A DNA stretch of 61,110 bases, the filler included, from a bacterium (GTDB lineage Bacteria > JAJRZV01), in the NCBI GenBank assembly GCA_024275095.1. It is 5 parts of 5 records of this genome, joined end to end, with 100 filler letters (N's around TTAATTAATTAA, not from the genome) between each part and the next. Parts side by side here need not be neighbours in the genome. Positions count along the whole stretch, not along the records: positions 1 to 29,049 come from JAJRZV010000028.1; 4 more parts are not named here. One strand, written 5' to 3'. Shown here in pieces: positions 4,292 through 29,149 of the stretch. The notes beneath the pieces were generated by a model that worked only from the letters and a program-made list of their open reading frames with translations, searched no databases and was not told the origin of the DNA. Position numbers and translations under genes: made by a program. How positions within the stretch are numbered: the first letter of the stretch is position 1; every line of letters begins with the position of its first letter.

Positions 4292-5704
4292 TCAAGGTTC
4301 TTTGATGCCGTGGTATTTGAGCTTGTACCTGAGGGTGCTTCGTGCGATGTTGAGCATGGCTGCTGCGAGAGTCTGATTGCCTCGCGCTTTTTTCAATGTG
4401 TAGAGCAGAAGGTTGCGTTCAAATTCGTCCACCAGGTCTTTGAGGTTCTGCCCGGGGCCTTCCCCGCGTGCTGAACGCTCGAGTTGTGTGTCAACGTAAT
4501 ACTCCATGGGAAGATCCAGCATTTCAATGTAACCTGTTTCGTTAAGGGCGACCAGACGCTCGATGAGATTCTGGAGTTCGCGGATGTTACCCGGCCAGGA
4601 ATATTCCATAAGAATTTTGAGTACACTTTCGTCAATTCCCCGGATTTCTTTCCCCATCATGCGGGAATATCTGGTGATAAAGTAATTGATGAAGTCCGGT
4701 ATATCTTCCTTGCGTTCACGCAGTGGTGGAAGATGAAGAGGAATCACGTTGAGGCGATAGTAAAGGTCTTCTCGAAATTTTCCTTCCCTGACCAGTCGTT
4801 TGAGATTCTTGTTTGTGGCGGCGATAATGCGTGTTCGCACCTTGACCGTGCGCTCTCCGCCAACACGTTCAAACTCTCCGGTTTGAAGCACCCGGAGCAG
4901 CTTTCCCTGAAGAGCCACGGGTGTATCACCGATCTCGTCCAGAAAGATGGTTCCTCCGTCAGCGAGTTCAAATTTTCCAAAATGTCGCTGGGTGGCCCCT
5001 GTAAAGGCTCCCTTTTCATGCCCGAAGAGAACGGACTCAGCAAGCTCGGGCGTGAGGTTGTTTACGTTTACGGTCACAAACGGTCCATCTGAAAATGGCG
5101 ATTTGTTGTGAATGTATCGGGCCAGGATTTCTTTTCCTGTGCCGCTCTCTCCGGTTATGAGTATGGTTGAGGGAAGGCGCGCTATCTTTTCTGCCACTTC
5201 AAAGATTTTCTGAACGTGACGATTGCGACCGATAATAAGGGTTTTGAGCTCTTCCTCTTCTTCGGTACCTTCAGCTACTAACTGAATTTGTTTTCTCACC
5301 TGGATGCGTTCAAATGCTCTTTCCACCCGTGTACACAGCTCTTCTCTGGAAAATCCCTTGACAAGGTAATCAAACGCTCCTTTCTGCATGGCTTCCACAA
5401 CCAGGGGAATATCCTTGAGTACCGAGATCATGATGATTTCCACGTTGAAGAAGTGGTTTTTAATTTTTTCCAGGAGTTCGAGTCCGTCTTCCTCTCCCAG
5501 GCGGATGTCCAGGAGAATGACGTCTATGTTGACACGGTTGAGTACGGCCAGAGCTTCTCCGCCCCCGGAAGCTTCGTATACCTCATATTCATCGCTCAAG
5601 AATTCCCGCACGGTGTTGCGGTCGGATTCTTTGTCGTCAATGACAAGTACACGTCGAACAGGCTGTAGAGGTATCTCAATGATCCGTGATGGCTCTACTG
5701 GCAT
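4292..5704 (-). CDS. Sigma54-dependent response regulator (NtrC family: receiver + AAA+ + Fis HTH)
   Basis: Receiver (VIDD, LLDI), GESGTGKE Walker A, GAFTGA, FLDEIG, WPGNIREL, C-terminal GNQTLAAAMLNIARSTLRYKL HTH. Confidence 0.95.
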   Translation of the reverse strand: MPVEPSRIIEIPLQPVRRVLVIDDKESDRNTVREFLSDEYEVYEASGGGEALAVLNRVNIDVILLDIRLGEEDGLELLEKIKNHFFNVEIIMISVLKDIPLVVEAMQKGAFDYLVKGFSREELCTRVERAFERIQVRKQIQLVAEGTEEEEELKTLIIGRNRHVQKIFEVAEKIARLPSTILITGESGTGKEILARYIHNKSPFSDGPFVTVNVNNLTPELAESVLFGHEKGAFTGATQRHFGKFELADGGTIFLDEIGDTPVALQGKLLRVLQTGEFERVGGERTVKVRTRIIAATNKNLKRLVREGKFREDLYYRLNVIPLHLPPLRERKEDIPDFINYFITRYSRMMGKEIRGIDESVLKILMEYSWPGNIRELQNLIERLVALNETGYIEMLDLPMEYYVDTQLERSARGEGPGQNLKDLVDEFERNLLLYTLKKARGNQTLAAAMLNIARSTLRYKLKYHGIKEP

Positions 5705-6063
5705 TAAATGTACCTCGTAACGATGTTGAGAAGCTCGCGGAAATGAAAGGGTTTGCGTATAAACTCATCGCATCCGGCGCGGCGACAGCGTTCTTCTGTA
5801 TCTGGGTCGCTTTTTGCAGTGATAATAATAACCCGGGTTGATGAAAGCTCTGGGTGGGATTTTACAAAGCGACATATGGTATCACCCGTCATCCCGGGCA
5901 TTGCATAGTCTATTAAAGCCACCTGAGGCCGTTCTGATTGAATTTTCTTGAGGGCCTCTGTCCCGTCCGTGGCGGTAATAATGGTACATCCTGTCCGCCG
6001 CAAAAGCACCTCTTCTAACTTCACCACACTGACCGCATCATCCGCGATAAGTATCTTTTTCAT
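5704..6063 (-). CDS. Single-domain response regulator (CheY-like receiver)
   Basis: ILIADD, LIDYAMPGMTG, IITA, KPF motifs; stop overlaps start of the NtrC-type gene. Confidence 0.92.
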   Translation of the reverse strand: MKKILIADDAVSVVKLEEVLLRRTGCTIITATDGTEALKKIQSERPQVALIDYAMPGMTGDTICRFVKSHPELSSTRVIIITAKSDPDTEERCRRAGCDEFIRKPFHFRELLNIVTRYI

Positions 6064-6289
6064 GATATTTAAACAATATAAGCAAAGGTTCGTCCCTTTT
6101 CAATGAAAAATCTGGAGTCTCGCCCGTGAGATGGGACTTTCCGTGCATGTGTCAGAATTTCGCGTCAAAAGTTTTAGGTGTTTCTGAAACCTGAATGTGT
6201 TTTAAGAGGTTAGAACACTCGAAAAAGGAGGAAGTTCGGCTTAACAGGAAGTAAAATAAAAGACATTTCATGGGCCGAGGGGGTTAAGG

Positions 6290-8281
6290 GTGAATGTTTT
6301 GGTGACACTTGCACTCATTCAGCAAATTGCTATGGAACGAATGTTGTTCAGACCCGTAACGTCTCCTGCATCCTGGGTTGAAGCGATTAGTACTGCCCAG
6401 ATGGAAAAGTGGGGCAAACTTCACACAGATGGGAGCCTTTCACTTGTTCCGGGAGTGTATTCCACGGGTTCCATGCATCCGGGAACACCCGTGAACGTGC
6501 TTGTTCGCGGTGGCGTGCCGTACGGGGTACAGGTGTATCTCGAGGGTGTATTGCTCAGGTCTGTTCTCAATGCCGGTCAGTTCAATCTGACAGGGTTCGT
6601 TCCCGAGGGCATTGGAGGACTTGAGGTTTTCAGCGGGCCGTCGGCCACGCTCCTTGGAGCTGAATCATCGTCTGGAGGAATAAACGTACTTTTCCCGCCA
6701 CATGTTCAGGGACTGAATTCTTACGTTCAGGTAACAGAGGGCGGCTACGTGAGAGCTGGAGCTGGATACGGTGGCAGGGCCGGAGATGCTCTGCGGTATT
6801 CTTTGCTTGCAGGAGGAGAGCTCACCCTCAGGGACCGGTACGGAAGGGATGCCGATGGAAGCTACGGGATCCTGAACGTCCAGGGTAAGCTCGGCCGGTG
6901 GACGCTCAGGCTGAAGGGATATTTTCTGGAAAAAAGGTGGGAGGTGGGATTCAAGTTTTCCCAGGTGCTCACTGTTCAACGATTCATTCAAGATCAACAG
7001 CAAAATCCTGACATCCAGATGTTCATGCCGGTGGGTGTGATTGATCCCAACCAGCGTTACAGGCAGGGACTTGCGTATTTGCTCGCGGAGGGAACTTCCA
7101 GCTGGAACGGGGACAGCGTGAACCTGCAGGTTTACGTGGCACGCACTGGAGAGTCTTTACTGGATATGCCTGATGACCACGATAGTTCCCTGAGCTTTGG
7201 ATTGACAGGAGAGGAGGTTCTCCATCGTGTGCGTTCATGGAGATACGGCGGCAGAGTTCACTGGACTTCTCAGACCCGGTGGGGACTGTGGGCCTCACGT
7301 GCTGGTATTGAAGGGGAGAGCCTGGAAACGTTTTGCCTTTCTCCCGTGGGATTTTGTGGTGCGGAGGTGTCACAGGATTTTTCAGACGAAAGAGTCGATG
7401 GCTGGGTAGGATTGGAATACTTTAATCGGTTTAGTGTTATGGGGGTGTCGGCGGCGGGACGCATTGATTACATCAGTCGTTACAGTACAGTGGAGAACCT
7501 TTCCGGGCGCGTGTTTCTTTATATTCCGCCTGTTGTAAGAGATCTGAAAATTACACTTTCAGGAGCAATATCCAGGGGAGTAAGGGTACCGCGAATGGAT
7601 GAACTTTACTTTGGTGACAGGGCGAACCCGGCATTGCGTCCTGAAAAGGGTCTCATGAAGGAACTCGCGGTCCTTGCTTCGTGGCAGGGGACTCCTCTGG
7701 CGATTCAGTTCAGAACCATGTATTTCAAAAACAATTTCAAAGACCTCATTACGCGCGGCATAGATCCTTCTCGCCCCGGGGCTCTCGTGTACGTGAACCT
7801 GGACAACGGAGTGAGCGAGGGTGTGGAAGGAGTGTTCAATCTTGAAGCTTTTAAAAAAGTTTTTCTGAAACTGGTGGCAACGCGGATGAGCATGAGAAGG
7901 CAGACACCCCTGTCCGGCTGGAAGGATCTGCTCGTACACCTTAAGCCCAGATACATCGTTAACGCATACACGGGAGTAGAAGACGGCTTGTGGAGCGTGG
8001 TTGCTCAGTGGGAATCGGTGGGGCCGTGGAAGGAACCCTTGCCCTATGTGGATGAAAATGGCGAAGTCCATGGAGACCCCGTTGCTCGGGCTCCCTTCGA
8101 GCAGAAAGGTTACAACTTGCTGCATATCTATGCCCGGCTGAATCTGAAGAAAATAAGGAGTATTGAAAGACTTTCTGTGTTTGTGAAGGTATACAATCTT
8201 TTGAACAGGAAATACCGCCTTCCTGGCGGTTTCCCGGGGATTCCTCGAACGGTTACTTCAGGCATTGAGCTTTCCATGTAA
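6290..8281 (+). CDS. TonB-dependent receptor (plug + beta-barrel)
   Basis: Plug-like LVPGV...VRGG...VYLEGV...LEVFSGPSATLLGAESSSGGINV; barrel motifs P...ELY...NPALRPEKG, NLLNRKY...G.PRT, amphipathic C-terminal strand. Confidence 0.85.
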   Translation: MNVLVTLALIQQIAMERMLFRPVTSPASWVEAISTAQMEKWGKLHTDGSLSLVPGVYSTGSMHPGTPVNVLVRGGVPYGVQVYLEGVLLRSVLNAGQFNLTGFVPEGIGGLEVFSGPSATLLGAESSSGGINVLFPPHVQGLNSYVQVTEGGYVRAGAGYGGRAGDALRYSLLAGGELTLRDRYGRDADGSYGILNVQGKLGRWTLRLKGYFLEKRWEVGFKFSQVLTVQRFIQDQQQNPDIQMFMPVGVIDPNQRYRQGLAYLLAEGTSSWNGDSVNLQVYVARTGESLLDMPDDHDSSLSFGLTGEEVLHRVRSWRYGGRVHWTSQTRWGLWASRAGIEGESLETFCLSPVGFCGAEVSQDFSDERVDGWVGLEYFNRFSVMGVSAAGRIDYISRYSTVENLSGRVFLYIPPVVRDLKITLSGAISRGVRVPRMDELYFGDRANPALRPEKGLMKELAVLASWQGTPLAIQFRTMYFKNNFKDLITRGIDPSRPGALVYVNLDNGVSEGVEGVFNLEAFKKVFLKLVATRMSMRRQTPLSGWKDLLVHLKPRYIVNAYTGVEDGLWSVVAQWESVGPWKEPLPYVDENGEVHGDPVARAPFEQKGYNLLHIYARLNLKKIRSIERLSVFVKVYNLLNRKYRLPGGFPGIPRTVTSGIELSM

Positions 8282-8377
8282 AAAACATTTCCTGGCCCGG
8301 GGTTACTTGGTATCAAGATTCAAAAAAGAAAAGAACAGCAAGTCCTTCAGGCGATATTCCGCTTCGAAGAGAAAGTG

Positions 8378-8481
8378 TGGCGAAAAGTTGCCTTTTGACA
8401 AAATTCAGCCATTTGGTTTTGACAGTGGCATAGAGGTCACTCTGCCTGGTGTGTAAATTTTTATCTGGCCGAAATTGGTCA
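8378..8481. promoter_or_regulatory. Three TGRC-N8-GYCA palindromic sites (candidate enhancer-binding-protein UAS)
   Basis: TGGC-GAAAAGTT-GCCT (8378-8393, one mismatch), TGAC-AAAATTCA-GCCA (8396-8411), TGGC-CGAAATTG-GTCA (8466-8481), upstream of the rSAM gene. Confidence 0.5.
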
Positions 8482-8534
8482 GGCACGGCTCGATCGCTTC
8501 GCTGCTAAGTTCCTGAGAATTCGGCAGAAACATG

Positions 8535-8551
8535 TTGGCACAAACCTTCCC
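8535..8551 (+). promoter_or_regulatory. Candidate sigma54 (-24/-12) promoter
   Basis: TTGGCAC-AAACC-TTCCC versus consensus TGGCAC-N5-TTGCW; perfect -24 box, G at -13 replaced by C. Confidence 0.45.
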
Positions 8552-8564
8552 TTTGTAGTGTGGC

Positions 8565-9824
8565 GTGCGATGGTCAACCTACAACGTGGAAATACCCCTT
8601 ACAGAAAAACTGAAAATGATCTACAACCCATTCACGGGTGGAGAGGTCATTGTTGAAGATTCGGGTGGAGATTTGGATGCAGACACCGCAGAGGTGCTGG
8701 CAGAAGCGGGTTTGGTGGTGGATGGGGATGAGGAAGCCGAATATTCGCGCGTTAGAGAGTCAATTTTTGCTGATTCCACCATGGGCCATGCCACGCTTCT
8801 CCTCACAACTGCCTGTAACTTCAGGTGTGTTTATTGTTTCCAGGAAGGTGAACGTCCACGCTACATGGATGACTTCACGGCAGAGGCAACAGCATGTTTT
8901 CTCGTAAACAGAGTGAAGGAGAGAGGGCTCGAGGGCCTGAGGCTCGTGTTTTACGGGGGCGAGCCCCTGATGAATTTGCGCGCTCTGCGCATCATTGCAC
9001 GCTATTGCAGGCACGGGTTAAACGGGCGGTTCGAGGCTGGTGTGATTACCAACGGATACTATCTCACTCCCGAGGTTATCCGCGAGCTGTGGGATCTGGG
9101 CGTCCAGTGGGTCAAGGTTACCATTGATGGAGTTCCGCCTTTTCACGAGAAGATGAGACCGGCGAGGCACGGCAGGCCCACCTTTGAAAGGCTTTTTTCC
9201 AACATGGTGAAAGCGGGCGAAAAACTCCGCGTCATCCTGGCAGCCAATTACACGGCTGAAACAGTGGAAGGTGTTTACCGGCTTGTTGATTACGTTGCAG
9301 CTCGAGGTGGACAGCAGTTTATAGACAAGTTTTTTGCTCGTCCGGTATTTGGAAAGCTTCTGTGCGACTCGGGGGCAGATATTTATTCATATGCACACAG
9401 CGATATCGAAGAGCTTTTCCGCGTGAACATGCATGCGGCCAAGCGCGGGTTCCCCATCAAGGACTTTTTCCACCTGGGCCCATGCAATTTTTACGATGCC
9501 TCGAGCCTGGCAGTGGATCCTGTGGGCAATGTGTACCCCTGCGAGGGTCTCGTGCATTTCCCGGAGTTTAAGGCTGGCAATGTAAGTCGAAGTGTTGATG
9601 AAACCGCTCTCGTGGACGTGAAAAAGGTGGAGCGTTTTCGCCCGTGCCGGCGCTGCCCGTATCTTCCCGCGTGCGGGGGTGGATGCGCTGTTTCCGCGCT
9701 TGTTGCCCGGGGCTCGCACGAGAAGGTGATGTGCGAGAAAACCTTTTTTGAGCGGGCGGGCGTAAGGTTTCTGAAAGAAAGGGCCCTTTCTGAAATAACA
9801 CAACAAAAGGAGGTGGCAATATGA
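8565..9824 (+). CDS. Radical SAM/SPASM-domain peptide maturase
   Basis: CNFRCVYC (CxxxCxxC), FYGGEPL, ITNGY, VTIDG; SPASM region GPC...GNVYPC...CRRCPYLPACGGGC...C (Cx2Cx5Cx3C plus 3 more Cys); ~70-aa N-terminal extension. Confidence 0.93.
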   Translation: MRWSTYNVEIPLTEKLKMIYNPFTGGEVIVEDSGGDLDADTAEVLAEAGLVVDGDEEAEYSRVRESIFADSTMGHATLLLTTACNFRCVYCFQEGERPRYMDDFTAEATACFLVNRVKERGLEGLRLVFYGGEPLMNLRALRIIARYCRHGLNGRFEAGVITNGYYLTPEVIRELWDLGVQWVKVTIDGVPPFHEKMRPARHGRPTFERLFSNMVKAGEKLRVILAANYTAETVEGVYRLVDYVAARGGQQFIDKFFARPVFGKLLCDSGADIYSYAHSDIEELFRVNMHAAKRGFPIKDFFHLGPCNFYDASSLAVDPVGNVYPCEGLVHFPEFKAGNVSRSVDETALVDVKKVERFRPCRRCPYLPACGGGCAVSALVARGSHEKVMCEKTFFERAGVRFLKERALSEITQQKEVAI

Positions 9825-9886
9825 AGGTACTGAAAATCAAAAAAGTGGTCCGCCAGAAAGCTGTTTGTTCATGGTACCTCTACTGA
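9821..9886 (+). CDS. Putative RiPP precursor peptide, 21 aa (MKVLKIKKVVRQKAVCSWYLY)
   Basis: ATG overlaps the rSAM stop (ATGA); strong SD AAGGAGGT 6 nt upstream; basic leader-like N-terminus and Cys/aromatic C-terminus; below the ORF-track size cut-off. Confidence 0.8.
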   Translation: MKVLKIKKVVRQKAVCSWYLY

Positions 9887-9927
9887 TTTTCCTGGAAAAG
9901 GGGGAGCAAAGCCCGTAACATAACCCC

Positions 9928-11376
9928 GTGGTGGGGTTGAGAAATTCAAAGGGGCAGGGGGTAGGGTTCTACCTGCTCCCCTTTTTCTTGTTTGTTTTTG
10001 TGTTGGGTGGTGTTTCAAGTTGTAGAGTCCATGAAAAGCGCCAAGAGTTAAGAGTAGGAGTAGTAGATTACGTTCAGCTTTATATTCCTGCACAACAGGA
10101 AATTGCGACGATAGGACCCTTTAGTACTGCCATCAATGAGCTTCGGAGAGAGAAAGTATGGACGGAACGCTATTGGGAAGCTAAGGATAATGGCAGAAAA
10201 ATTGTGTGTGGTGAAATGAAAAAATTAAATAAAAAAATCAACATGGAAAAACTTATTGATAGTTTAAATACAGCAGCAAAACGTTCTTTTTATATAACGG
10301 GTCACAATGGCTTTGTATTTTCAAGACTGCGTTTTGAAAAAGGCTCTTCCGAATGTCCTCTTAAGGTTTTGTTTCCTTCATACATATCTCCTTTAGAAGT
10401 GATGGCAATATTAAAAAGAAGAGCTTTTGTTATTTCACAGGAAAAGAAGAAAAGATTGTTTGTGATTGACCACCTGAATTCCGCGGAGGTTGTTTTAAAG
10501 AGAAACCCTTTGGCTGAACAGAAAAATAATTTTTCACAAATATTCCTCAAGGCCTATCCCCGTCCGGAAAAGGCTTTTGCAGCACTTCTCAACGGAGACG
10601 TGGACCTGGCCTTTCCTGTTCCATATTTTTTGTACAGCGCATACAAAAGTGTCAGCGGCCTCGAGTTTAAACTGTATAACATCGAGAACTTCGTTTACAT
10701 TATTGCCTTCAACCACAAACATCTTGGAACCGGTGAAAACGATGTGCTCCACAAGGTGCTGGACCTCGCTGCTGACAGGGAAAGAATCAACAGGGATGTG
10801 TTCGGCGGCCTGGCAAACCTCGAAGGCTTCTGGCCCTGGAGGTACGATCCTGTTGAAGCCATGAAGATGCTCGACGAGCACGGGTGGCACTATGCTCCCC
10901 ATTCTTCCATCAGGGAAAAGAACGGTAAGAAGTTAATGCTGAAGGCAGCCTTTCCCGAATGGTGGCCCGAGGGGCGACGTATTCTGTTTCTCTTGAAAAG
11001 AGATTTTTATCGAATAGGCATCGGGCTTGATGTAAAATCCATAAGCTTCGAAGAAATGAGGAAAATTTTTGTCGAACAAAAAGACGATTTTGACCTCGTT
11101 TTTATCATGGGTGTGGTGGGTTATCCTCACACCCCGCTTGCGCTCTGGTGCAGGAAACTGGCAGGCCGGTTCAACCCGTTTGCATACGATGACCCTGACT
11201 TCTGCCGGGCTTCTGCAAAAGGTGACGCAGAAGGAGTCATTCGGGCTGCGTTAAAGAACCCGCCTTTTGTGTTCATCGCGGAAGCCCCCGTGGTTGTGGC
11301 TGCGGATGAACTGCTGGAGATTCCCCGGGAGAGCTACCTTTTTGAGAATATCCAGCAGTGGAGGTTCCGCCATTAA
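9928..11376 (+). CDS. Extracytoplasmic solute-binding lipoprotein, family 5 (OppA/DppA-like)
   Basis: Hydrophobic signal ending VSSC; ALLNGDVDL, IAFNH, DRERINRDVFGG, YDPVEAMKMLDEHGW...REKNGKKL, RIGIGLDV, DFDLV motifs; exact start uncertain. Confidence 0.8.
   Translation: MVGLRNSKGQGVGFYLLPFFLFVFVLGGVSSCRVHEKRQELRVGVVDYVQLYIPAQQEIATIGPFSTAINELRREKVWTERYWEAKDNGRKIVCGEMKKLNKKINMEKLIDSLNTAAKRSFYITGHNGFVFSRLRFEKGSSECPLKVLFPSYISPLEVMAILKRRAFVISQEKKKRLFVIDHLNSAEVVLKRNPLAEQKNNFSQIFLKAYPRPEKAFAALLNGDVDLAFPVPYFLYSAYKSVSGLEFKLYNIENFVYIIAFNHKHLGTGENDVLHKVLDLAADRERINRDVFGGLANLEGFWPWRYDPVEAMKMLDEHGWHYAPHSSIREKNGKKLMLKAAFPEWWPEGRRILFLLKRDFYRIGIGLDVKSISFEEMRKIFVEQKDDFDLVFIMGVVGYPHTPLALWCRKLAGRFNPFAYDDPDFCRASAKGDAEGVIRAALKNPPFVFIAEAPVVVAADELLEIPRESYLFENIQQWRFRH
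9951..9986 (+). terminator. Terminator-like hairpin with U-tract downstream of the peptide gene
   Basis: GGGGCA(GGG)GGTAG-ggtt-CTACC-TGCTCC followed by CC-TTTTT; overlaps the predicted N-terminus of the next ORF. Confidence 0.45.
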
Positions 11377-13057
11377 AACCTCTGTGCGAACACGGTTGTG
11401 GAAACTTGTGCTCGCGGCAGCCATTGTGCCCGTGATATTTTATGGCCTTCTTAACGCAGCAACCTTTCTCAGGATGACGGCAGAGTCCACACGCGAAAGG
11501 CTCAAACGCGTGGGCAGCAGGGTCTCCGAGGAAATTACTTCTTATATAAAGCACAACTTTGACATCATGGAAACTCTTGTTGAATCTTTCTCCGGAGCGA
11601 TGATGACACCTGAGCAGGTGGATGTGCTCCTTAAAAACTATGTTGTTAATTTTTCCCGGATCAGGGACATGCAAATCCGGGTGGGTCGGCACTGGTATTA
11701 CGCAATATTACAAAAGCCCATGGTCACTCCTCCCCTTTTTTCGATTTCAGCAGAAAAAGCTGTCTCCTCGATTGCTTTTGAAAAGGAAACGGGGCTTCCT
11801 GTGATTTTTTTGCAGTTGAAAAAGAAGGATTCTATTCTCGGTGACGTTGAGGTGACGGCAAGAGTGAGCATTATTGACCTCTGGAAACGCCTTATGAATG
11901 CAGAAGCTGATACCGGCATTACGTTTATCCTGACCGACGGGCAGGCTCGCATCATCGCTCACAGTCGCAAAACGCGGAAAGCCCAGGCCCTGGTATTTAA
12001 TGACACGAGGGTCAGGGATTTCCTGGCGCACAGCTCGGATAACCTTTTCGTTCGGGAACCTGACGAAACTTATTCCATGGTGGTGACGCAGGAAGTTAAG
12101 GGTCCCGGGTGGTTTCTCGCTGCTGCCCAACCTGTTGGCATGTGGGGGAGCAAGGCATTTTATACTGCACTGCGAATATTTGCCTTTATTCTTTCCTTTG
12201 TGTCTTTTGCGACCCTCGTATCTTATTATCAGGGTGGATACATAACCGGTGCTGTAGAGGAACTCGTGAAAGGCACAAGGGAGACAGCGGCAGAGAATTT
12301 CTCGTATCGGATCAGGTTGAGAACCGGAGATGAGCTGGAAGAACTCGCAGATGCCTTCAACGAAATGAACACTCGGATAAGAGAACTGCTCGAAGAGGTA
12401 AAAGAAAAGGAAAGAAAGCTGACGTTTGTAAGGCTCATTCGAGGTGTGCTGCACGACCTCAAGCATCCTTTTGCTGGCATGAAAACTGCACTTTCTTTTC
12501 GCGATGCAGAAAAGATGAAGGAGCAAATCTCACGGCATATTGAAGAGACAGAACAGCTTTTTGAGGACCTCCAGGCTCTCGGGCAGGAAAAACTGGAAAT
12601 CCCTCTTTTAAAGACTCCAGTGCATGAGGTGGTGAAAGAAGCGGTGGACATGTATAGCGACGCCGCGAAACGAAAAGGGATTGCCATAAGTTTTCAAACA
12701 CCTGAAAAAATTTACGCTCATGCTCATCCACAGTATTTGCTGCGTGTGCTGTGCAATCTGGTAGAAAACGCTGTTCAGGCCACGTCCCACGGAAAAATCG
12801 AAGTTATTGCAAAAGATGAGGGTGAGAAGATTAAAATAGTAGTGGTGGATACAGGAAAAGGCATTCCTCCGGAGAACCTTCCGCGAATTTTTCAATGGGA
12901 GTTTTCCACCAAGCATCGTGGTCTGGGATTGGGATTGGCGTTGTGCAAGCGTTTTGTAGAAGCAATGGATGGAAGCATAACAGTGGAAAGTGAGGTGGGG
13001 AGGGGAACGACCTTTACCATTGTGCTAAAAAAGCACAGGGAGGAGAAAAATGCCTGA
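11372..13057 (+). CDS. Membrane sensor histidine kinase (2 TM, periplasmic Cache-like, HAMP, HisKA, HATPase)
   Basis: Two TM segments, HAMP (TGDELEELADAFNEM), H-box LHDLKHP, NLVENAVQA, DTGKGI, FSTK, GLGLGL; start ATT 11372 or GTG 11384. Confidence 0.93.
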   Translation: MKTSVRTRLWKLVLAAAIVPVIFYGLLNAATFLRMTAESTRERLKRVGSRVSEEITSYIKHNFDIMETLVESFSGAMMTPEQVDVLLKNYVVNFSRIRDMQIRVGRHWYYAILQKPMVTPPLFSISAEKAVSSIAFEKETGLPVIFLQLKKKDSILGDVEVTARVSIIDLWKRLMNAEADTGITFILTDGQARIIAHSRKTRKAQALVFNDTRVRDFLAHSSDNLFVREPDETYSMVVTQEVKGPGWFLAAAQPVGMWGSKAFYTALRIFAFILSFVSFATLVSYYQGGYITGAVEELVKGTRETAAENFSYRIRLRTGDELEELADAFNEMNTRIRELLEEVKEKERKLTFVRLIRGVLHDLKHPFAGMKTALSFRDAEKMKEQISRHIEETEQLFEDLQALGQEKLEIPLLKTPVHEVVKEAVDMYSDAAKRKGIAISFQTPEKIYAHAHPQYLLRVLCNLVENAVQATSHGKIEVIAKDEGEKIKIVVVDTGKGIPPENLPRIFQWEFSTKHRGLGLGLALCKRFVEAMDGSITVESEVGRGTTFTIVLKKHREEKNA

Positions 13058-13295: not shown

Positions 13296-14282
13296 ATGAG
13301 CGAGATCGTATGGCAGAAAGATAATGTACGGATTGTACGATTTGGCACCCGTACACCCTGGCCGCCAAGCCATGCCAACGCGTATCTCATTGATGATGAA
13401 GTGGTCACGCTTGTGGATACGGGTTTGTGCCTGGACGAAAGCATTCAGATGATCGAAGATTATTTGAACTCGCGCAAACTTCGCATCCACAGAATTGTTA
13501 TCACTCACGGTCACATAGACCACTATGGTGCCGTCGGCGCTTTTCGGGAACGTTATCCTTCCGCTGTTGTTTTATGTCATAAAGCCGACGCGGACAAGTT
13601 GACCCGAAAGGTCTCGGAAGGAATAGAAGAAGCCTCTGAAACAATGCGGGAGTTTTTTACTTCTCAGGGAGTCCCTGAAACAGCCGTTCACATGAGCGGT
13701 GAAATGCTGCGCATACTGGATGGCGTGGTGTGTCCTGTGTATGATATTGAGTTTTTGAAGGGTGGAGAGGTTCTTGAGTCAGGAGCCATCAAGTTAAAAG
13801 TTGTGCACGTACCAGGACATTCTCCGGGTCAGGTGGTATTGTACGATGAGAAACACGGGATTCTTTTTTCCGGAGATCACGTGCTTTCCAAGAAACCTCC
13901 AACCCCGCTGATTGAAATGACGGGGGAAGGCAAGTTTTTTAACAATATCATTCATTATGTTGACTCTCTTCATTACGTGAGAAATTTTAAAGTTCAACTT
14001 GTATTGCCCGGGCACTGGCGTACCTTTGAAGACCTCAGTACAAAAGTGGATGCCCTGTTGAAGTATTACGAGATGAAAAAATGGGAAACCAAAAACGTCC
14101 TTGAAAAAGCCGGTCGCCCCATGAATGCGTATGAGATCGCCAGAGCCCTGTTTCCCGAAATGCCTGAAGGGGTGTTTTTCATAGGGGTTTCAGAAGCAAT
14201 TGGTTACCTGTCCCTTCTTGAAAAGGATGGCGAAGTTGTGGCCGACAAAACTTCTCATCCCGTTCTTTACCATCTGGTCTGA
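13296..14282 (+). CDS. MBL-fold metallo-hydrolase with C-terminal winged helix
   Basis: LVDTG, THGHIDHYG, PGHSPG, FSGDH, LPGH. Confidence 0.9.
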   Translation: MSEIVWQKDNVRIVRFGTRTPWPPSHANAYLIDDEVVTLVDTGLCLDESIQMIEDYLNSRKLRIHRIVITHGHIDHYGAVGAFRERYPSAVVLCHKADADKLTRKVSEGIEEASETMREFFTSQGVPETAVHMSGEMLRILDGVVCPVYDIEFLKGGEVLESGAIKLKVVHVPGHSPGQVVLYDEKHGILFSGDHVLSKKPPTPLIEMTGEGKFFNNIIHYVDSLHYVRNFKVQLVLPGHWRTFEDLSTKVDALLKYYEMKKWETKNVLEKAGRPMNAYEIARALFPEMPEGVFFIGVSEAIGYLSLLEKDGEVVADKTSHPVLYHLV

Positions 14283-14326
14283 TTCCTTACAAGCAGAATC
14301 GGTCCTCTGGTCGCACAGCGAAATAC

Positions 14327-14356
14327 TTGACATCTGTTCCGCGGGTTGTTTATTAT
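14327..14356 (+). promoter_or_regulatory. Sigma70-type promoter of the SCP2 gene
   Basis: TTGACA-18 nt-TATTAT, then SD AGGAGG before ATG 14399. Confidence 0.5.
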
Positions 14357-14398
14357 CGTTAACACAATGAACACTATATTACGAAAAGGAGGGATAGC

Positions 14399-14860
14399 AT
14401 GGTAGAGGAAGCATTTGTGAAGGAAATTCAGGGTTTGTCAGACGAAGAGTTGGCAGCAAGGGTAAAGGAGGCTGTGGAGAAAAATGACCGCAAGGCCCTT
14501 GCTCAGATTTCTGCTGCTGCCACAGCGCGTCAGACTTACGAGGTCATCATTCCCACTGCTTCAGCTGCTCGTCCGGACCTTGGTGAGAAACTCAAGGGCA
14601 CCAAGGCTGTGTTCAAATTCGTTATCGAAGGCGAAGGCGGTGGAGTGTGGTGTCTCGTGATTGATGACGGTAACATCAGCGTGAAAGCCGAAGACGATCC
14701 CAATGCCAATGTGACCATTACCATGGCCGAAGCTGACCGCCAGGCAATGGCCCGAAGAGAGCTGGATCCTCAGATGGCTTTCATGCAGGGCAAGGTGAAA
14801 ATTGCCGGAGATATGGCTCTGGCCATGAAACTTCGTACATTGCTCCGGCCGCCCCAGTAA
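14399..14860 (+). CDS. SCP2 sterol/lipid-binding domain protein
   Basis: FVIEGEGGGVW...LDPQMAFMQGKVKIAGDMALAMKL. Confidence 0.9.
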   Translation: MVEEAFVKEIQGLSDEELAARVKEAVEKNDRKALAQISAAATARQTYEVIIPTASAARPDLGEKLKGTKAVFKFVIEGEGGGVWCLVIDDGNISVKAEDDPNANVTITMAEADRQAMARRELDPQMAFMQGKVKIAGDMALAMKLRTLLRPPQ

Positions 14861-16076: not shown

Positions 16077-17126
16077 ATGAGCCTTTTCAGCAGTGCGTAC
16101 TCCCTGGGCCTTGACATCGGGTCAAGTGCCCTGAAATTAGTAGAACTTAAAGAAACAAAGGGAGGATATGTCGTTACCAGGTGTGATTTTCAGGAGATTC
16201 CTCCTGATTCCATCGTAGATGGTCAGATCATAAACTATCAGTCAGTTAGTGCTGCACTGGAAGAACTGCTCAAACGTGCAAAGCCTCACACAAAACGGGT
16301 TACAACTTCCATTGCTGGCACGTCGGTGATTGTAAAAACGGTGAATCTTCCCATGATGACGCAAGATGAACTGGAACAATCTATTACCTGGGAAGCAGAG
16401 CAGTACCTTACTGTAGACATTAACGAAGTTAATCTGGATTTCCAGATTCTGGAGACACGACCTGAAGAAAATCAGATGAGTGTGTTACTGGTAGCAGCAA
16501 AAAAAGATATTATCAACGATTACGTTTCTGTGCTCAGTGAGCTCAAATATCAGCTTGTTGTGATGGACGTAGATTGCTTCGCGGTACAAAACATTTTTGA
16601 ATTTAACTATCCTACAGAGCCGGGCGAGATGGTGGTGCTTGTCAACATCGGAAGTCACATAACAAACGTGGAGCTTTACAGAGAAGGCAAGCCTGTGATT
16701 ACACGCGATATTTCCATTGGAGGCAACAGTATTACTGATGAGATGCAGAAGGTTCTGGGCTTTTCGTATGAAGAGGCTGAAGAAGTGAAAAAGAAGGTTT
16801 CAGAAGGAGAAGAAACGTCTGATCAGATCCTCGGCGTAATGAAAGCAGGAGTGGACAATCTTGTTGGTGAAATTCAGCGTACCGTCGATTTTCTGATGGG
16901 TTCTGTTGGAGAGTCAGATATCGCCCGCATTGTCATTTCTGGGGGGGCGAGCAAGACCTATGGGTTGCGTGAAGAACTCAGTAATGCTTATGGAAAGGAA
17001 GTGGAAGTACTTGATCCGTTCAAAAGTTTTCAACTGGATACTAAGGTGGTAGACCCTGCATTGATAAACTTTCTGGGTTCTGCAGCGACGGTAGCAGCGG
17101 GGCTGGCGTTGAGAAGAGGAGAGTGA
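16077..17126 (+). CDS. pilM: Type IV pilus assembly protein PilM
   Basis: GLDIGSSALKLVEL, WEAEQY, LDFQIL, VNIG, ISGG, GLALR; first gene of MNOPQ operon. Confidence 0.96.
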   Translation: MSLFSSAYSLGLDIGSSALKLVELKETKGGYVVTRCDFQEIPPDSIVDGQIINYQSVSAALEELLKRAKPHTKRVTTSIAGTSVIVKTVNLPMMTQDELEQSITWEAEQYLTVDINEVNLDFQILETRPEENQMSVLLVAAKKDIINDYVSVLSELKYQLVVMDVDCFAVQNIFEFNYPTEPGEMVVLVNIGSHITNVELYREGKPVITRDISIGGNSITDEMQKVLGFSYEEAEEVKKKVSEGEETSDQILGVMKAGVDNLVGEIQRTVDFLMGSVGESDIARIVISGGASKTYGLREELSNAYGKEVEVLDPFKSFQLDTKVVDPALINFLGSAATVAAGLALRRGE

Positions 17127-17135
17127 GGGATACCC

Positions 17136-17720
17136 ATGATTAAGATCAATTTATTACCCGTAAGGGAAGTCAAAAAACGTGAGGAGCTGAGGAATCACTT
17201 CATCATTGTAGGTATTATGGCATTGGTGGTTGTAATTATTATTGCGTATTTGAAAATTTCCATATCATCGTCCATAAAAAAAGTTCAAAGGGATATTGCA
17301 CAGACAAGGGCCGAAATTCAGAGGCTGGAGAAAGTTATTGGAGAAGTCAATAAGATCAAACAAATCAAAAAAGAACTGGAAGATAAATTAAGGGTGATTG
17401 ATCAGTTGAGCTCCGATAGAGATTATGTTGTGCACCTGCTCGATGAGCTTGCGATGGCTATTCCTGTCGATTACGCACGTAAAATACCTCGAAAAATCCA
17501 GCTGACTTCATTTGAGAAAAAAGGAAATGCTGTGACGATTAAAGGTGTTTCCCTGGATAATGATTCCGTTTCTGTGTTTGTCAACAACCTGGAGAAGTCT
17601 CCGTACTATCAGGCCGTGAGCATAAAGAAACTGACTAAAAAGATGAGGCAGAGAATTCGGACGTACGAGTTTGAAGTGCTGGCTACGGTGGAAAAGCCGA
17701 GAGGAGGAGGTAATCCGTGA
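17136..17720 (+). CDS. pilN: Type IV pilus assembly protein PilN
   Basis: MIKINLLP motif, TM, coiled coil, NLEKSPY. Confidence 0.95.
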   Translation: MIKINLLPVREVKKREELRNHFIIVGIMALVVVIIIAYLKISISSSIKKVQRDIAQTRAEIQRLEKVIGEVNKIKQIKKELEDKLRVIDQLSSDRDYVVHLLDELAMAIPVDYARKIPRKIQLTSFEKKGNAVTIKGVSLDNDSVSVFVNNLEKSPYYQAVSIKKLTKKMRQRIRTYEFEVLATVEKPRGGGNP

Positions 17721-18373
17721 ATCCTCAGGAGCTGCTTGATCGATATTTGAAACTCCCCCAGGCACAGAGATTTCTGGTTGTAGGGGGAGTGCTGGGTTTC
17801 ATTCTTCTGCTGTTTATTTATTTTTCGTACCTGCCTTCAAGAACACAACTGAATGCTCTTAAAGGGCAGTTGAACACTCTCACGGCTCAAATGATGGAGA
17901 AAAAAAGAATTGCAGCTGAACTGGACCGGTTTAAACAGGAAGTGGAAAATTTGAAAAAGGAATTGGCAGAAGCCCAGAAGGTTCTACCGGAGAAGGCTGA
18001 TATTCCCAACCTTCTTCTGGAACTTTCATCGCGGGGGTCGGAGGCAGGAATTACAATTGACTCTTTTCAACCCAAGGGAGAGAAGGCACTGGGTTTCTAC
18101 TCCGAACTGAATTTTGAACTTAAAATAGAAGGTGGATATCACGATATTGCTACTTATCTGGACATCATTTCAAAACTCAAACGAATTGTGAAAGTTACAG
18201 ATCTCAACATAAAACCCGCCTCCAAAGGCCAGAGCAAAGGTAAAAAAAAGGAGCAAAAAGGCACTCTCCTGGTTTCTTCTATGAAGCTCGTGACCTACCG
18301 CTTTAATCCAGAATCTTCAAAAAAACCTGGAAAGAAACCAGGTGGCGCCTCGCGCGTTCGGTCCCGGAGGTAA
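17717..18373 (+). CDS. pilO: Type IV pilus assembly protein PilO
   Basis: TM + coiled coil, LPEKADIPNLL, FYSE...GGYHDIATY...LKRIV. Confidence 0.94.
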   Translation: MNPQELLDRYLKLPQAQRFLVVGGVLGFILLLFIYFSYLPSRTQLNALKGQLNTLTAQMMEKKRIAAELDRFKQEVENLKKELAEAQKVLPEKADIPNLLLELSSRGSEAGITIDSFQPKGEKALGFYSELNFELKIEGGYHDIATYLDIISKLKRIVKVTDLNIKPASKGQSKGKKKEQKGTLLVSSMKLVTYRFNPESSKKPGKKPGGASRVRSRR

Positions 18374-18376
18374 GCG

Positions 18377-18904
18377 GTGAAAAGTGAGCGTGTAGTAATA
18401 TTGGCGATTTTTTCAGTGATTCTAACCGCAGGTGCGGTGTCCGTTGGAGGCTGTGGTGGTTCTGCCGAGGTTAAACGAGTACAACCCCCCAAGAAACCCG
18501 TACCTGCTCCGGCCGTTTCGAAGAAGCAGACTCCAGCGGGTGCCGTAAAGAAAGAACCTGAAAAACCTTTATACAGATATGACCGGTTTAACAAGGTTGA
18601 CCCATTTGAACCCATCCTGAGGATTGGTCCTTCTGAAGAGAAAATCCCAACCAATCCTCTGGAGAAGTTCGACATTCACGAATTAAAGGTAAAGGCTATT
18701 GTGTATGACCCTCGCAATCCAATGGCGGTGATAGAAGATCCTGAAGGGCAAACTTACATTGTAAAAAGAGGGATGAAGATAGGAAGGGCTGATGGAACGA
18801 TCACTCGCATTTCGCGGGATAAAATTTATGTGCTTGAAAAGTATGAAGATATTTTTGGAAATGTGAGAACAAATGAAGTGGTGTTATCCATAGAGGAAGA
18901 ATAA
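18377..18904 (+). CDS. pilP: Type IV pilus lipoprotein PilP
   Basis: Lipobox GGC, DPF, PLEKFDI, AVIEDPEG...VKRG.KIG. Confidence 0.93.
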   Translation: MKSERVVILAIFSVILTAGAVSVGGCGGSAEVKRVQPPKKPVPAPAVSKKQTPAGAVKKEPEKPLYRYDRFNKVDPFEPILRIGPSEEKIPTNPLEKFDIHELKVKAIVYDPRNPMAVIEDPEGQTYIVKRGMKIGRADGTITRISRDKIYVLEKYEDIFGNVRTNEVVLSIEEE

Positions 18905-18906
18905 AT

Positions 18907-29049: not shown

Positions 29050-29149
29050 NNNNNNNNNNNNNNNNNNNNNNNNNNNNNNNNNNNNNNNNNNNNTTAATTA
29101 ATTAANNNNNNNNNNNNNNNNNNNNNNNNNNNNNNNNNNNNNNNNNNNN
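29050..29149. other. Artificial contig spacer
   Basis: N-run with TTAATTAATTAA (stops in all frames). Confidence 0.99.

Follow-up and report, generated by a model that had tools for sequence, protein, structure and literature searches.

A 21-residue peptide gene coupled to a radical SAM/SPASM enzyme gene: a probable ribosomal precursor within a conserved gene module

Among the described systems in which a radical S-adenosylmethionine (SAM) enzyme with a SPASM domain acts on a short peptide, PqqE modifies a precursor, PqqA, of little more than 20 residues, SCIFF-type precursors have about 45 amino acids (aa) and six cysteines, and PapB forms links between cysteines and acidic residues. NCBIfam also holds a model for a geopeptide radical SAM maturase (TIGR04280), defined as a hypothetical equivalog. 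Two further kinds of system are relevant here for their gene content: methanobactin operons, in which genes for a TonB transporter, a family-5 periplasmic binding protein and a MATE exporter accompany that of a short precursor, and the signal circuits staphylococcal agr and Vibrio LuxP-LuxQ-LuxO, with which module logic can be compared. The present analysis concerns a window of 61,110 nucleotides (nt), i.e., the whole stretch of DNA analyzed, from the bacterial assembly GCA_024275095.1, in which a gene encoding a radical SAM/SPASM peptide maturase (8565..9824, plus strand) is followed on the same strand by an open reading frame (ORF) for a peptide of 21 aa (9821..9886). This ORF is very probably the genuine precursor gene of the adjacent enzyme. 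Taken as a whole, the evidence makes it likely that it encodes a translationally coupled 21-residue ribosomal precursor that is modified by this radical SAM/SPASM enzyme and belongs to a conserved gene module.

The peptide, MKVLKIKKVVRQKAVCSWYLY, is encoded from an ATG at 9821-9823 to a TGA at 9884-9886. The stop codon of the enzyme gene (TGA, 9822-9824) overlaps this ATG as ATGA, and a Shine-Dalgarno sequence (AAGGAGGT, 9807..9814, plus strand) lies 6 nt 5′ of the ATG, where the 3′ end of the enzyme gene is not conserved. The ORF, the overlap and the Shine-Dalgarno sequence had been described in the initial annotation and could be verified in the sequence. Position 9821 is the earliest start codon past the preceding in-frame stop, and 21 aa is therefore the maximal length of the peptide. 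Residues 1-15 are leader-like and residues 16-21 form the putative core, C16-S-W-Y-L-Y21. The exact peptide was not found in a collection of 15 billion proteins, in which the neighboring enzyme is present (P0001); this fits a peptide gene that was never called. None of the ORFs located between the TonB receptor gene and the enzyme gene (8282-8564) is precursor-like. Among the 27,402 ORFs of 15-40 aa that were extracted mechanically from the genome, nine combine the pattern ^M[KR][IVL] with C[PSTV][WFY][LMIVFYCA], including that of the window, both patterns having been derived from the related peptide family described below. A first dozen residues rich in Lys/Arg and Ile/Leu/Val combined with C-x-[WFY] is found in a single one of these short ORFs, that of the window.

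The enzyme, 419 aa from a GTG start codon, belongs to the radical SAM superfamily (PF04055, 69 bits versus a Pfam cut-off of 29.5) and to its SPASM subgroup. TIGR04085, the SPASM model with which the initial annotation had proposed to examine it, scores 52 bits (cut-off 27), and the motif C307-x13-G321-x4-C326, C361-x2-C364-x5-C370-x3-C374, C390 is present; the Pfam model PF13186 scores slightly under its own cut-off (19.9 versus 21.5). In an alignment of 30 sequences (the enzyme and 29 relatives, each 26-31% identical to it), the cysteines of the CX3CX2C motif (C84/C88/C91) and the seven SPASM cysteines (C307, C326, C361, C364, C370, C374 and C390) are all invariant. An AlphaFold2 model (mean predicted local distance difference test score, pLDDT, 85.1; predicted template modelling score 0.85) places three short strands and two helices (residues ~8-69) ahead of the radical SAM barrel, and this N-terminal beta-beta-beta-alpha-alpha domain looks like a peptide-recognition element in the model. 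Sequence (E 2.9e-16) and fold (Foldseek E 1.7e-21, template modelling (TM) score 0.70 over the full length) agree on 5WGG/5WHY as the closest solved structure, and the title of this entry refers to thioether formation in sactipeptides.

The four best NCBIfam matches of the enzyme, TIGR04280 (174 bits), CefB (156), TIGR04463 (136) and PapB (102), are all maturases of short Cys-containing peptides, and none of them reaches its own cut-off. The initial annotation had likened the peptide to the geopeptide families TIGR04280 and TIGR04229, and this holds as a lead only. TIGR04280 is indeed the best NCBIfam model for the enzyme as well as for its relatives P0020, P0004, P0002 and P0021, and both systems associate a SPASM enzyme with a very short peptide. 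However, the enzyme (174 bits) and its relatives (208-290 bits) stay below the cut-off of 400 and thus outside TIGR04280, and neither the window peptide nor 17 related peptides match TIGR04229. A search for literature on geopeptide or TIGR04280, from which subscription journals were largely absent, found none. The CteB-type enzymes (5WGG/5WHY; SCIFF, TIGR03974) provide the nearest structure, and share the seven-Cys SPASM domain and a Cys-bearing substrate, but the identity is about 21-22%, TIGR03974 scores 85 bits versus a cut-off of 425, and the window peptide has 21 aa and one Cys. PapB-type enzymes (NF047865) likewise combine a SPASM domain with short Cys motifs, and many peptide cores of the related family B (see below) have an acidic residue at Cys+5; in contrast, the score of the window enzyme is far under the PapB cut-off of 340, its precursor is not a repeat and the core CSWYLY lacks an acidic residue. 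PqqE is only a distant match (TM score 0.48) and differs in its Glu-Tyr chemistry and pathway context. By the likeness of the enzymes, the system would work as a leader-guided SPASM maturase system of the sactipeptide/ranthipeptide kind.

The best non-self match of the enzyme among 5.8 billion cluster representatives is 31% identical. Its relatives were split into sub-families, and two tighter sub-family alignments were used for locus searches, from which 163 loci were fetched. One sub-family, called here family B, comprises 80 metagenome loci whose enzymes are 49-75% identical to each other and 27-31% identical to that of the window; the peptides encoded beside them are given the same label, which was defined in this analysis and is not that of a curated family. 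At least 130 nt follow the stop codon of the enzyme gene in 71 of these loci. In 57 of the 71, an ATG-initiated ORF located at most 450 nt downstream of the enzyme gene encodes 20-45 aa, starting with M-[KRTQ]-[IVL] and containing C-x-[WFY]; another 13 loci have a peptide that shares this leader and in which other residues follow the Cys (e.g., GCSSIVDD, YCMSMVDE). A comparable Cys peptide is therefore present downstream in 70 of the 71 loci, L101 being the only one without it; an examination of short ORFs downstream of homologous enzyme genes had been proposed in the initial annotation. Typical examples are MKIKVLKSAQKAPSREMCPWMICVPPENSK and MKITVIKKATSTRKPQNFCPWLIDEAADKKD. These peptides have 29-36 aa and begin with an MK[IV]x[VI][LIV]K leader; a single Cys, mostly within C-P-W, is invariant. 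In the 56 distinct sequences this Cys is the sole invariant column, and the following Pro is at least 90% conserved. Of 53 family-B loci, 20 show the very ATGA overlap of enzyme stop and peptide start that is seen in the window. In five family-B loci (L111, L124, L146, L152 and L153), the peptide gene is duplicated in tandem, and the two products are identical or differ at 1-3 residues.

Similar peptides accompany other relatives of the enzyme. Among 40 other genomes that were compared, all related to the source organism at the domain level only, three have a match to the enzyme at E ≤1e-20. In the best one (genome G024, 32% identity, E 4.6e-56; its enzyme is 36% identical to P0002), the homologue-supported start of the enzyme gene (position 1345) is preceded, at a distance of 62 nt, by a 20-aa ORF (MKLTVIRVGKPGPLGCVILR) whose ribosome-binding site is strong. 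This ORF is kept in all three genomes compared from the G024 lineage (3/3), with variants MKLTVIRTGKPGPLGCVILR and MKLTVIRVGKPGILGCIMFR; the changes are mostly synonymous, the start, stop and length are constant, and the Cys occupies the same position, 16, as that of the window peptide. Its leader aligns with that of family B (hhalign E 3.4e-5). Among the 163 fetched loci, the window enzyme obtains its top tblastn scores with the spirochaete loci L009, L013 and L017 (190-196 bits; L012 scores 165). The L017 locus begins inside the enzyme gene, which leaves the upstream region out of its range; the three others encode a peptide upstream of the enzyme, ending in GSCCSWIRGGFA (L009), RCCYWIAGAYG (L013) and GCCMWIVSDYIF (L012). 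Their cores are CCSWI, CCYWI and CCMWI, respectively, the CSWI of L009 being near the CSWY of the window. Peptides with a leader and CC are also encoded upstream of the enzyme in L008, L010, L011, L014, L015, L021, L023 and L024. Where the sources annotated the related peptides, they were labelled "hypothetical protein". Seventeen of them have no match in NCBIfam (E up to 1), and the 56 family-B peptides have chance-level matches only in Pfam, the contact of two of them with the AgrD model at E 0.035 being noise.

Enzymes of this clade are thus as a rule accompanied by very short precursors, with a Lys/Val/Ile-type leader ahead of a Cys-containing core, whose genes may lie upstream or downstream of the enzyme gene. 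The window ORF shares the positional features of family B, since it is adjacent to the enzyme gene, on the same strand and ATGA-coupled, as well as the distance of the Cys from the N-terminus (15-21 residues in family B) and the hydrophobic or aromatic residues that follow it (S-W-Y-L-Y after Cys16). The proposal that it is the precursor for the adjacent enzyme is supported by the frequent ATGA coupling and the leader and core design of the peptides beside related enzymes, and this comparative evidence is the decisive support for it. The initial annotation had called the peptide unusually short; 21 aa is short indeed, but it is not isolated, as its relatives have 20-36 aa. A different design is seen at L035:3879-4374 (a Deferrimicrobium record), where a distant relative of the enzyme is followed by three tandem ORFs of 44-47 aa (e.g., MKKGLNEIFCPIELIEPIAF...CNTGMVCTTGEKEE) that look like a separate multi-copy precursor family.

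A docking model is available for a related pair, the enzyme of the family-B locus L086 and its own 30-aa peptide, with family alignments for both. The pair scores 0.76, versus 0.00 for the best of three controls, with a mark that is reached by 116 of 157 solved complexes and by 2 of 215 mismatched pairs; the runs show a contact agreement of at least 48% and a partner pLDDT of at least 54. In this model, residues 1-12 of the peptide contact residues 24-31 (third N-terminal strand) and 54-66 of the enzyme, and residues 18-21 (C-P-W-M) contact residues 358-363 and 431-435, beside the SPASM cysteines. As for CteB-type enzymes, the leader would thus be set on the N-terminal domain and the Cys beside the SPASM cysteines.

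The enzyme and peptide genes stand within a larger gene set. Upstream, on the minus strand, lie genes encoding a sigma-54-dependent NtrC-type response regulator (4292..5704; REC, Sigma54_activat and HTH_8 domains) and, in operon with it, a single-domain response regulator (5704..6063, REC only). A TonB-dependent outer-membrane receptor (6290..8281, plus strand; plug and beta-barrel) is encoded directly upstream of the enzyme gene. Downstream, on the plus strand, are genes encoding an SBP_bac_5 solute-binding protein (9928..11376; PF00496, 53 bits versus a cut-off of 32.4), starting at GTG 9928 or TTG 9937, and a membrane histidine kinase (11267..13057; HAMP, HisKA and HATPase_c domains), whose true start is probably near 11375, abutting the stop codon of the binding-protein gene. 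The binding protein is probably a lipoprotein, given a hydrophobic stretch followed by V-S-S-C. Residues 39-137 of the kinase, a segment spanning its first membrane helix and the beginning of its sensor domain, are 27% identical (E 8e-13) to the kinase of the family-B locus L084, whose gene also sits after a binding-protein gene.

This gene company recurs in family B. Upstream of the enzyme, the sigma-54 regulator is encoded in 43 of the 44 loci that extend at least 1,500 nt on that side; downstream, an SBP_bac_5 gene follows on the same strand in all 40 loci with at least 900 nt of sequence, and the N-terminus of a membrane kinase comes after SBP_bac_5 in all 28 with at least 2,200 nt. Pfam confirms the domains of the module in sampled loci and in the window. 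All five kinds of module genes, i.e., those encoding peptide, radical SAM enzyme, SBP_bac_5 protein, histidine kinase and sigma-54 regulator, are present in the window, which differs in layout by the divergent orientation of the regulator gene and the insertion of the TonB receptor gene. In G024, the binding-protein gene comes directly after the enzyme gene. In L009, L012 and L013, the enzyme gene is flanked by a binding-protein match on its upstream side and by a match to the kinase N-terminus on its downstream side, and the peptide gene directly precedes it. L010 combines TonB receptor, binding protein, peptide, radical SAM enzyme and ABC exporter genes; L009 also encodes a MATE exporter, and L015 and L023 encode TonB receptors. 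According to record titles, the relatives belong to Acidobacteriota, Spirochaetota, Myxococcota, Omnitrophota, Planctomycetota and other phyla. As judged from these comparisons, the gene pair belongs to a module that is conserved across many bacterial lineages.

The family-B modules also share a putative regulatory signal. The sigma-54 promoter motif TGGxAC-N5-TTGC, with at most one mismatch, occurs 33 times in the 24,773 positions upstream of family-B enzyme genes (32 loci), compared to four times in the 311,302 other plus-strand positions. In the window, a candidate sigma-54 promoter with one mismatch (TGGCACAAACCTTCC, 8536..8550, plus strand) ends 14 nt before the GTG of the enzyme gene, and rpoN is present in the genome. 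The divergent region ahead of the TonB receptor gene contains a second sigma-54-like site (TGGGACTTTCCGTGC, 6132-6146), which has two mismatches and retains GG-N10-GC. About 70 nt past the peptide stop, inside the part of the binding-protein gene that codes for the signal peptide, a strong, GC-rich hairpin with a T-run (9957..9990, plus strand) resembles a terminator. Its T-run encodes Phe-rich residues, and the 127-nt stretch folds modestly better than shuffled sequences (z -1.9); it may be an attenuator that raises the enzyme-peptide message over that of the sensor genes, or a coincidence. A search of Rfam (E up to 0.1) over positions 5900-10300 gave no match.

These elements can be assembled into a proposed mechanism. 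The Lys/Val/Ile-rich residues ~2-8 of the peptide would dock as an extra beta-strand on the N-terminal recognition domain of the enzyme. The core C16-S-W-Y-L-Y would thereby come to lie close to the first auxiliary Fe-S cluster in the active site, where the enzyme would modify it at or through Cys16, most likely by forming an intramolecular thioether from the Cys sulfur to the carbon of a residue a few places downstream, hence a small ring. That the modification is centered on Cys16 seems a reasonable expectation, to be preferred to the contrary; the comparison favors Cys over Trp or Tyr as the modified residue because Cys is the only invariant column, the aromatic residue at +2 being absent in 13 of 70 family-B peptide loci and in the 20-aa relatives. 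That the modification is a thioether is a more tentative proposal. It is favored because Cys is the only universal residue, because the closest named and solved relatives form thioethers and because the SPASM domain has seven rather than eight conserved cysteines, which would, as in the 5WGG enzyme, keep one cluster site free for a substrate Cys.

The modified peptide, or a complex of it, would be returned across the outer membrane by the TonB receptor and would be the periplasmic ligand of the binding lipoprotein, which would control the kinase and the regulator and thereby the sigma-54 promoter before the enzyme-peptide operon. Sensing of the product by the binding protein and kinase is possible, and is proposed with slightly less assurance than the thioether. 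A wider reading, doubtful at present, sees in the peptide the precursor form of a periplasmic signal that the cell makes for itself. A Cys ring of five or six residues, closed by the radical SAM enzyme, would be released, taken up by the TonB receptor and perceived through lipoprotein, kinase and NtrC-type regulator down to the sigma-54 promoter seen in relatives. In this reading, the module would be an agr-like or LuxPQ/LuxO-like autoinduction cassette of double-membraned bacteria, present in many phyla and undescribed so far. As in such circuits, genes for a sensor kinase and a response regulator accompany those for a short precursor and the enzyme that processes it; as in LuxPQ/LuxO, a periplasmic binding protein is paired with the kinase and the regulator is an NtrC-type sigma-54 activator; and by analogy with agr, the sigma-54 promoter before the family-B enzyme and peptide genes would permit positive feedback. 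In contrast, there is no sequence relationship with these circuits, and the modifying enzyme is here a radical SAM enzyme.

Several observations weigh against this interpretation. The first ones concern the peptide itself. A hidden Markov model (HMM) built on the 56 family-B peptides scores it at 3.9 bits; in the set of 44,589 genome ORFs this corresponds to E 95, and many unrelated ORFs rank above it. Two of the top-scoring ORFs (C21:4136-4201 and C8:17397-17462) were considered as possible paralogues and rejected, as they are unrelated and merely contain C-P/S-W. With hhalign, VRQKAVCSWYL aligns on xxxxxxCPWxI (P 0.001), the match being limited to the Cys core and its probability being only 21%. 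The peptide has no match in NCBIfam (E up to 10) or Pfam, and a six-frame search of the genome with TIGR04229 (22 positions, cut-off 30 bits) found nothing at 9821-9886 and three weak matches of about 13 bits elsewhere. Its fifth leader residue is K compared to V/I in family B, and it lacks the 6-9 post-core residues and the acidic residue seen in most family-B peptides. The sequence link between the window peptide and the peptide families is weaker than synteny suggests. The regular expressions and composition rules used above were also defined post hoc, when the peptides had already been seen. The Shine-Dalgarno octamer followed by a start codon is by itself weak and non-decisive evidence: AAGGAGGT has 158 sites genome-wide, of which 97 have a start codon 4-10 nt past GGAGG, opening 79 ORFs of at least 60 aa and 18 shorter ones, a number about equal to chance expectation.

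Other observations that point the same way concern the enzyme and the module. The enzyme has no close relative (31% identity at best), which leaves no nearer context in which to compare the exact ORF; a search of genome contigs with this single protein as query also found no relative. The docking result was obtained for a related pair, and the method may have reproduced enzyme-peptide complexes already solved in this superfamily, such as 5V1T. No protease or exporter gene was found in the module of the window. Finally, the mismatch of the candidate promoter at 8536-8550 affects the critical GC at -12, and almost no 5′ leader remains before the enzyme gene; because of this mismatch and of the 14 nt that separate it from the GTG start, we treat this site as a lead and not as a finding.

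The weakness of the matches to the family-B model, the lack of any matching family in databases and the chance frequency of short ORFs behind AAGGAGGT speak for 9821-9886 being a chance reading frame with an accidental octamer resembling a ribosome-binding site, the enzyme acting on a peptide encoded elsewhere or on the binding protein. This appears quite improbable. Short peptides of like design are encoded next to the enzyme in nearly all of the examined family-B loci and in the three genomes of the G024 lineage, exactly one such ORF exists in the window, in the coupled position often seen in family B, and the combination of leader-like composition and C-x-aromatic is unique to it among the short ORFs of the genome. 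Moreover, the searches found no second copy of the enzyme in the same genome and no alternative precursor-like ORF upstream. If the precursor is real, as we consider far more probable, its modification could still be an aromatic link, i.e., a C-C or C-O crosslink of Trp18 or Tyr19/Tyr21 such as a W-Y-L or Y-L-Y cyclophane, as the initial annotation had envisaged beside a thioether; Cys16 would then be a handle for the auxiliary cluster or a later metal or disulfide ligand. The window core does contain the aromatic-x-x triplets of three-residue cyclophanes, an aromatic residue is found at Cys+2 in 57 of the 71 family-B loci, in the CC[SYM]WI peptides of spirochaetes and in the CCDWSY of L023, and cyclophane maturases are among the weaker NCBIfam matches (YhhB, NF041707, 59 bits versus a cut-off of 445). 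However, the aromatic position is dispensable, since no such residue is found there in 13 family-B loci, with cores like CSSIV, CMSMV or CEILV, nor in the 20-aa relatives, with CVILR or CIMFR, the Cys remaining the only invariant position, and the matches to thioether-type maturases and to a thioether-forming structure are stronger than those to cyclophane enzymes. An aromatic link is thus rather unlikely compared to a Cys-centered modification.

The function of the product is open to a comparable alternative, according to which the Cys product is a metallophore that is exported, binds a metal, re-enters by the TonB receptor and is captured by the family-5 binding protein, with the kinase and regulator tuning production to the metal supply. 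The TonB receptor genes beside the enzyme gene in the window, L010, L015 and L023, and the exporters of L009 (MATE) and L010 (ABC) recall such a cycle and, taken with the family-5 binding protein, resemble methanobactin operons; the window binding protein weakly matches the nickel-binding protein NikA (50 bits) and the opine-metal-binding protein CntA (25 bits), both far under their cut-offs. Yet no genes for the permease or ATPase of an uptake ABC transporter accompany the binding-protein gene in the window or in the family-B loci examined, a histidine kinase gene abutting it instead; a lone Cys is a poor metal site; and a tblastn search with the TonB receptor of the window, a divergent query, gave no match in the 80 family-B loci. 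We consider a metallophore unlikely, and retain a precursor modified at its Cys, with a product possibly sensed by the binding protein and kinase, as the preferred interpretation.

The surroundings of the module can be described briefly. The source organism appears to be without any phylum-level relative among the 40 comparison genomes. Directly after the kinase gene, positions 13296-14860 encode a protein with a metallo-beta-lactamase fold and an SCP2-domain protein. They are followed by a type IV pilus run (16077-21684) with pilM-, pilN-, pilO- and pilP-like genes, read from translations only, and a secretin-like pilQ whose translation shows a long acidic insert rich in Glu, Ala and Pro. A thyX gene (PF02511) is located upstream of the module, together with an alaS-like gene and the 3′ end of gyrB, the last two recognized from their translations only. 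The contig that carries all these genes corresponds to window positions 1-29049; beyond it lies other sequence joined to it, with paired runs of 44 N separated by 12 bases beginning at 29050, 34566, 44744 and 54454.

Peptides modified by radical SAM enzymes are a known type, and both the peptide variant and the five-gene set reported here are apparently undescribed: no description of these peptides or of the module was found in the literature, in a search that largely left out subscription journals and supplements. If our interpretation is true, few substrates of SPASM-type radical SAM enzymes would be shorter than the window peptide, which would also be a member of a large peptide family that has been missed by gene callers or recorded as "hypothetical protein", and that has no NCBIfam or Pfam model. 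That binding protein, sensor kinase, sigma-54 activator and sigma-54 promoters before the enzyme gene keep recurring together points to a circuit for the sensing or recovery of a modified peptide in double-membraned bacteria, such circuits being known mainly from Gram-positive bacteria. The fixed gene company across distant lineages would be of greater importance than the single peptide.

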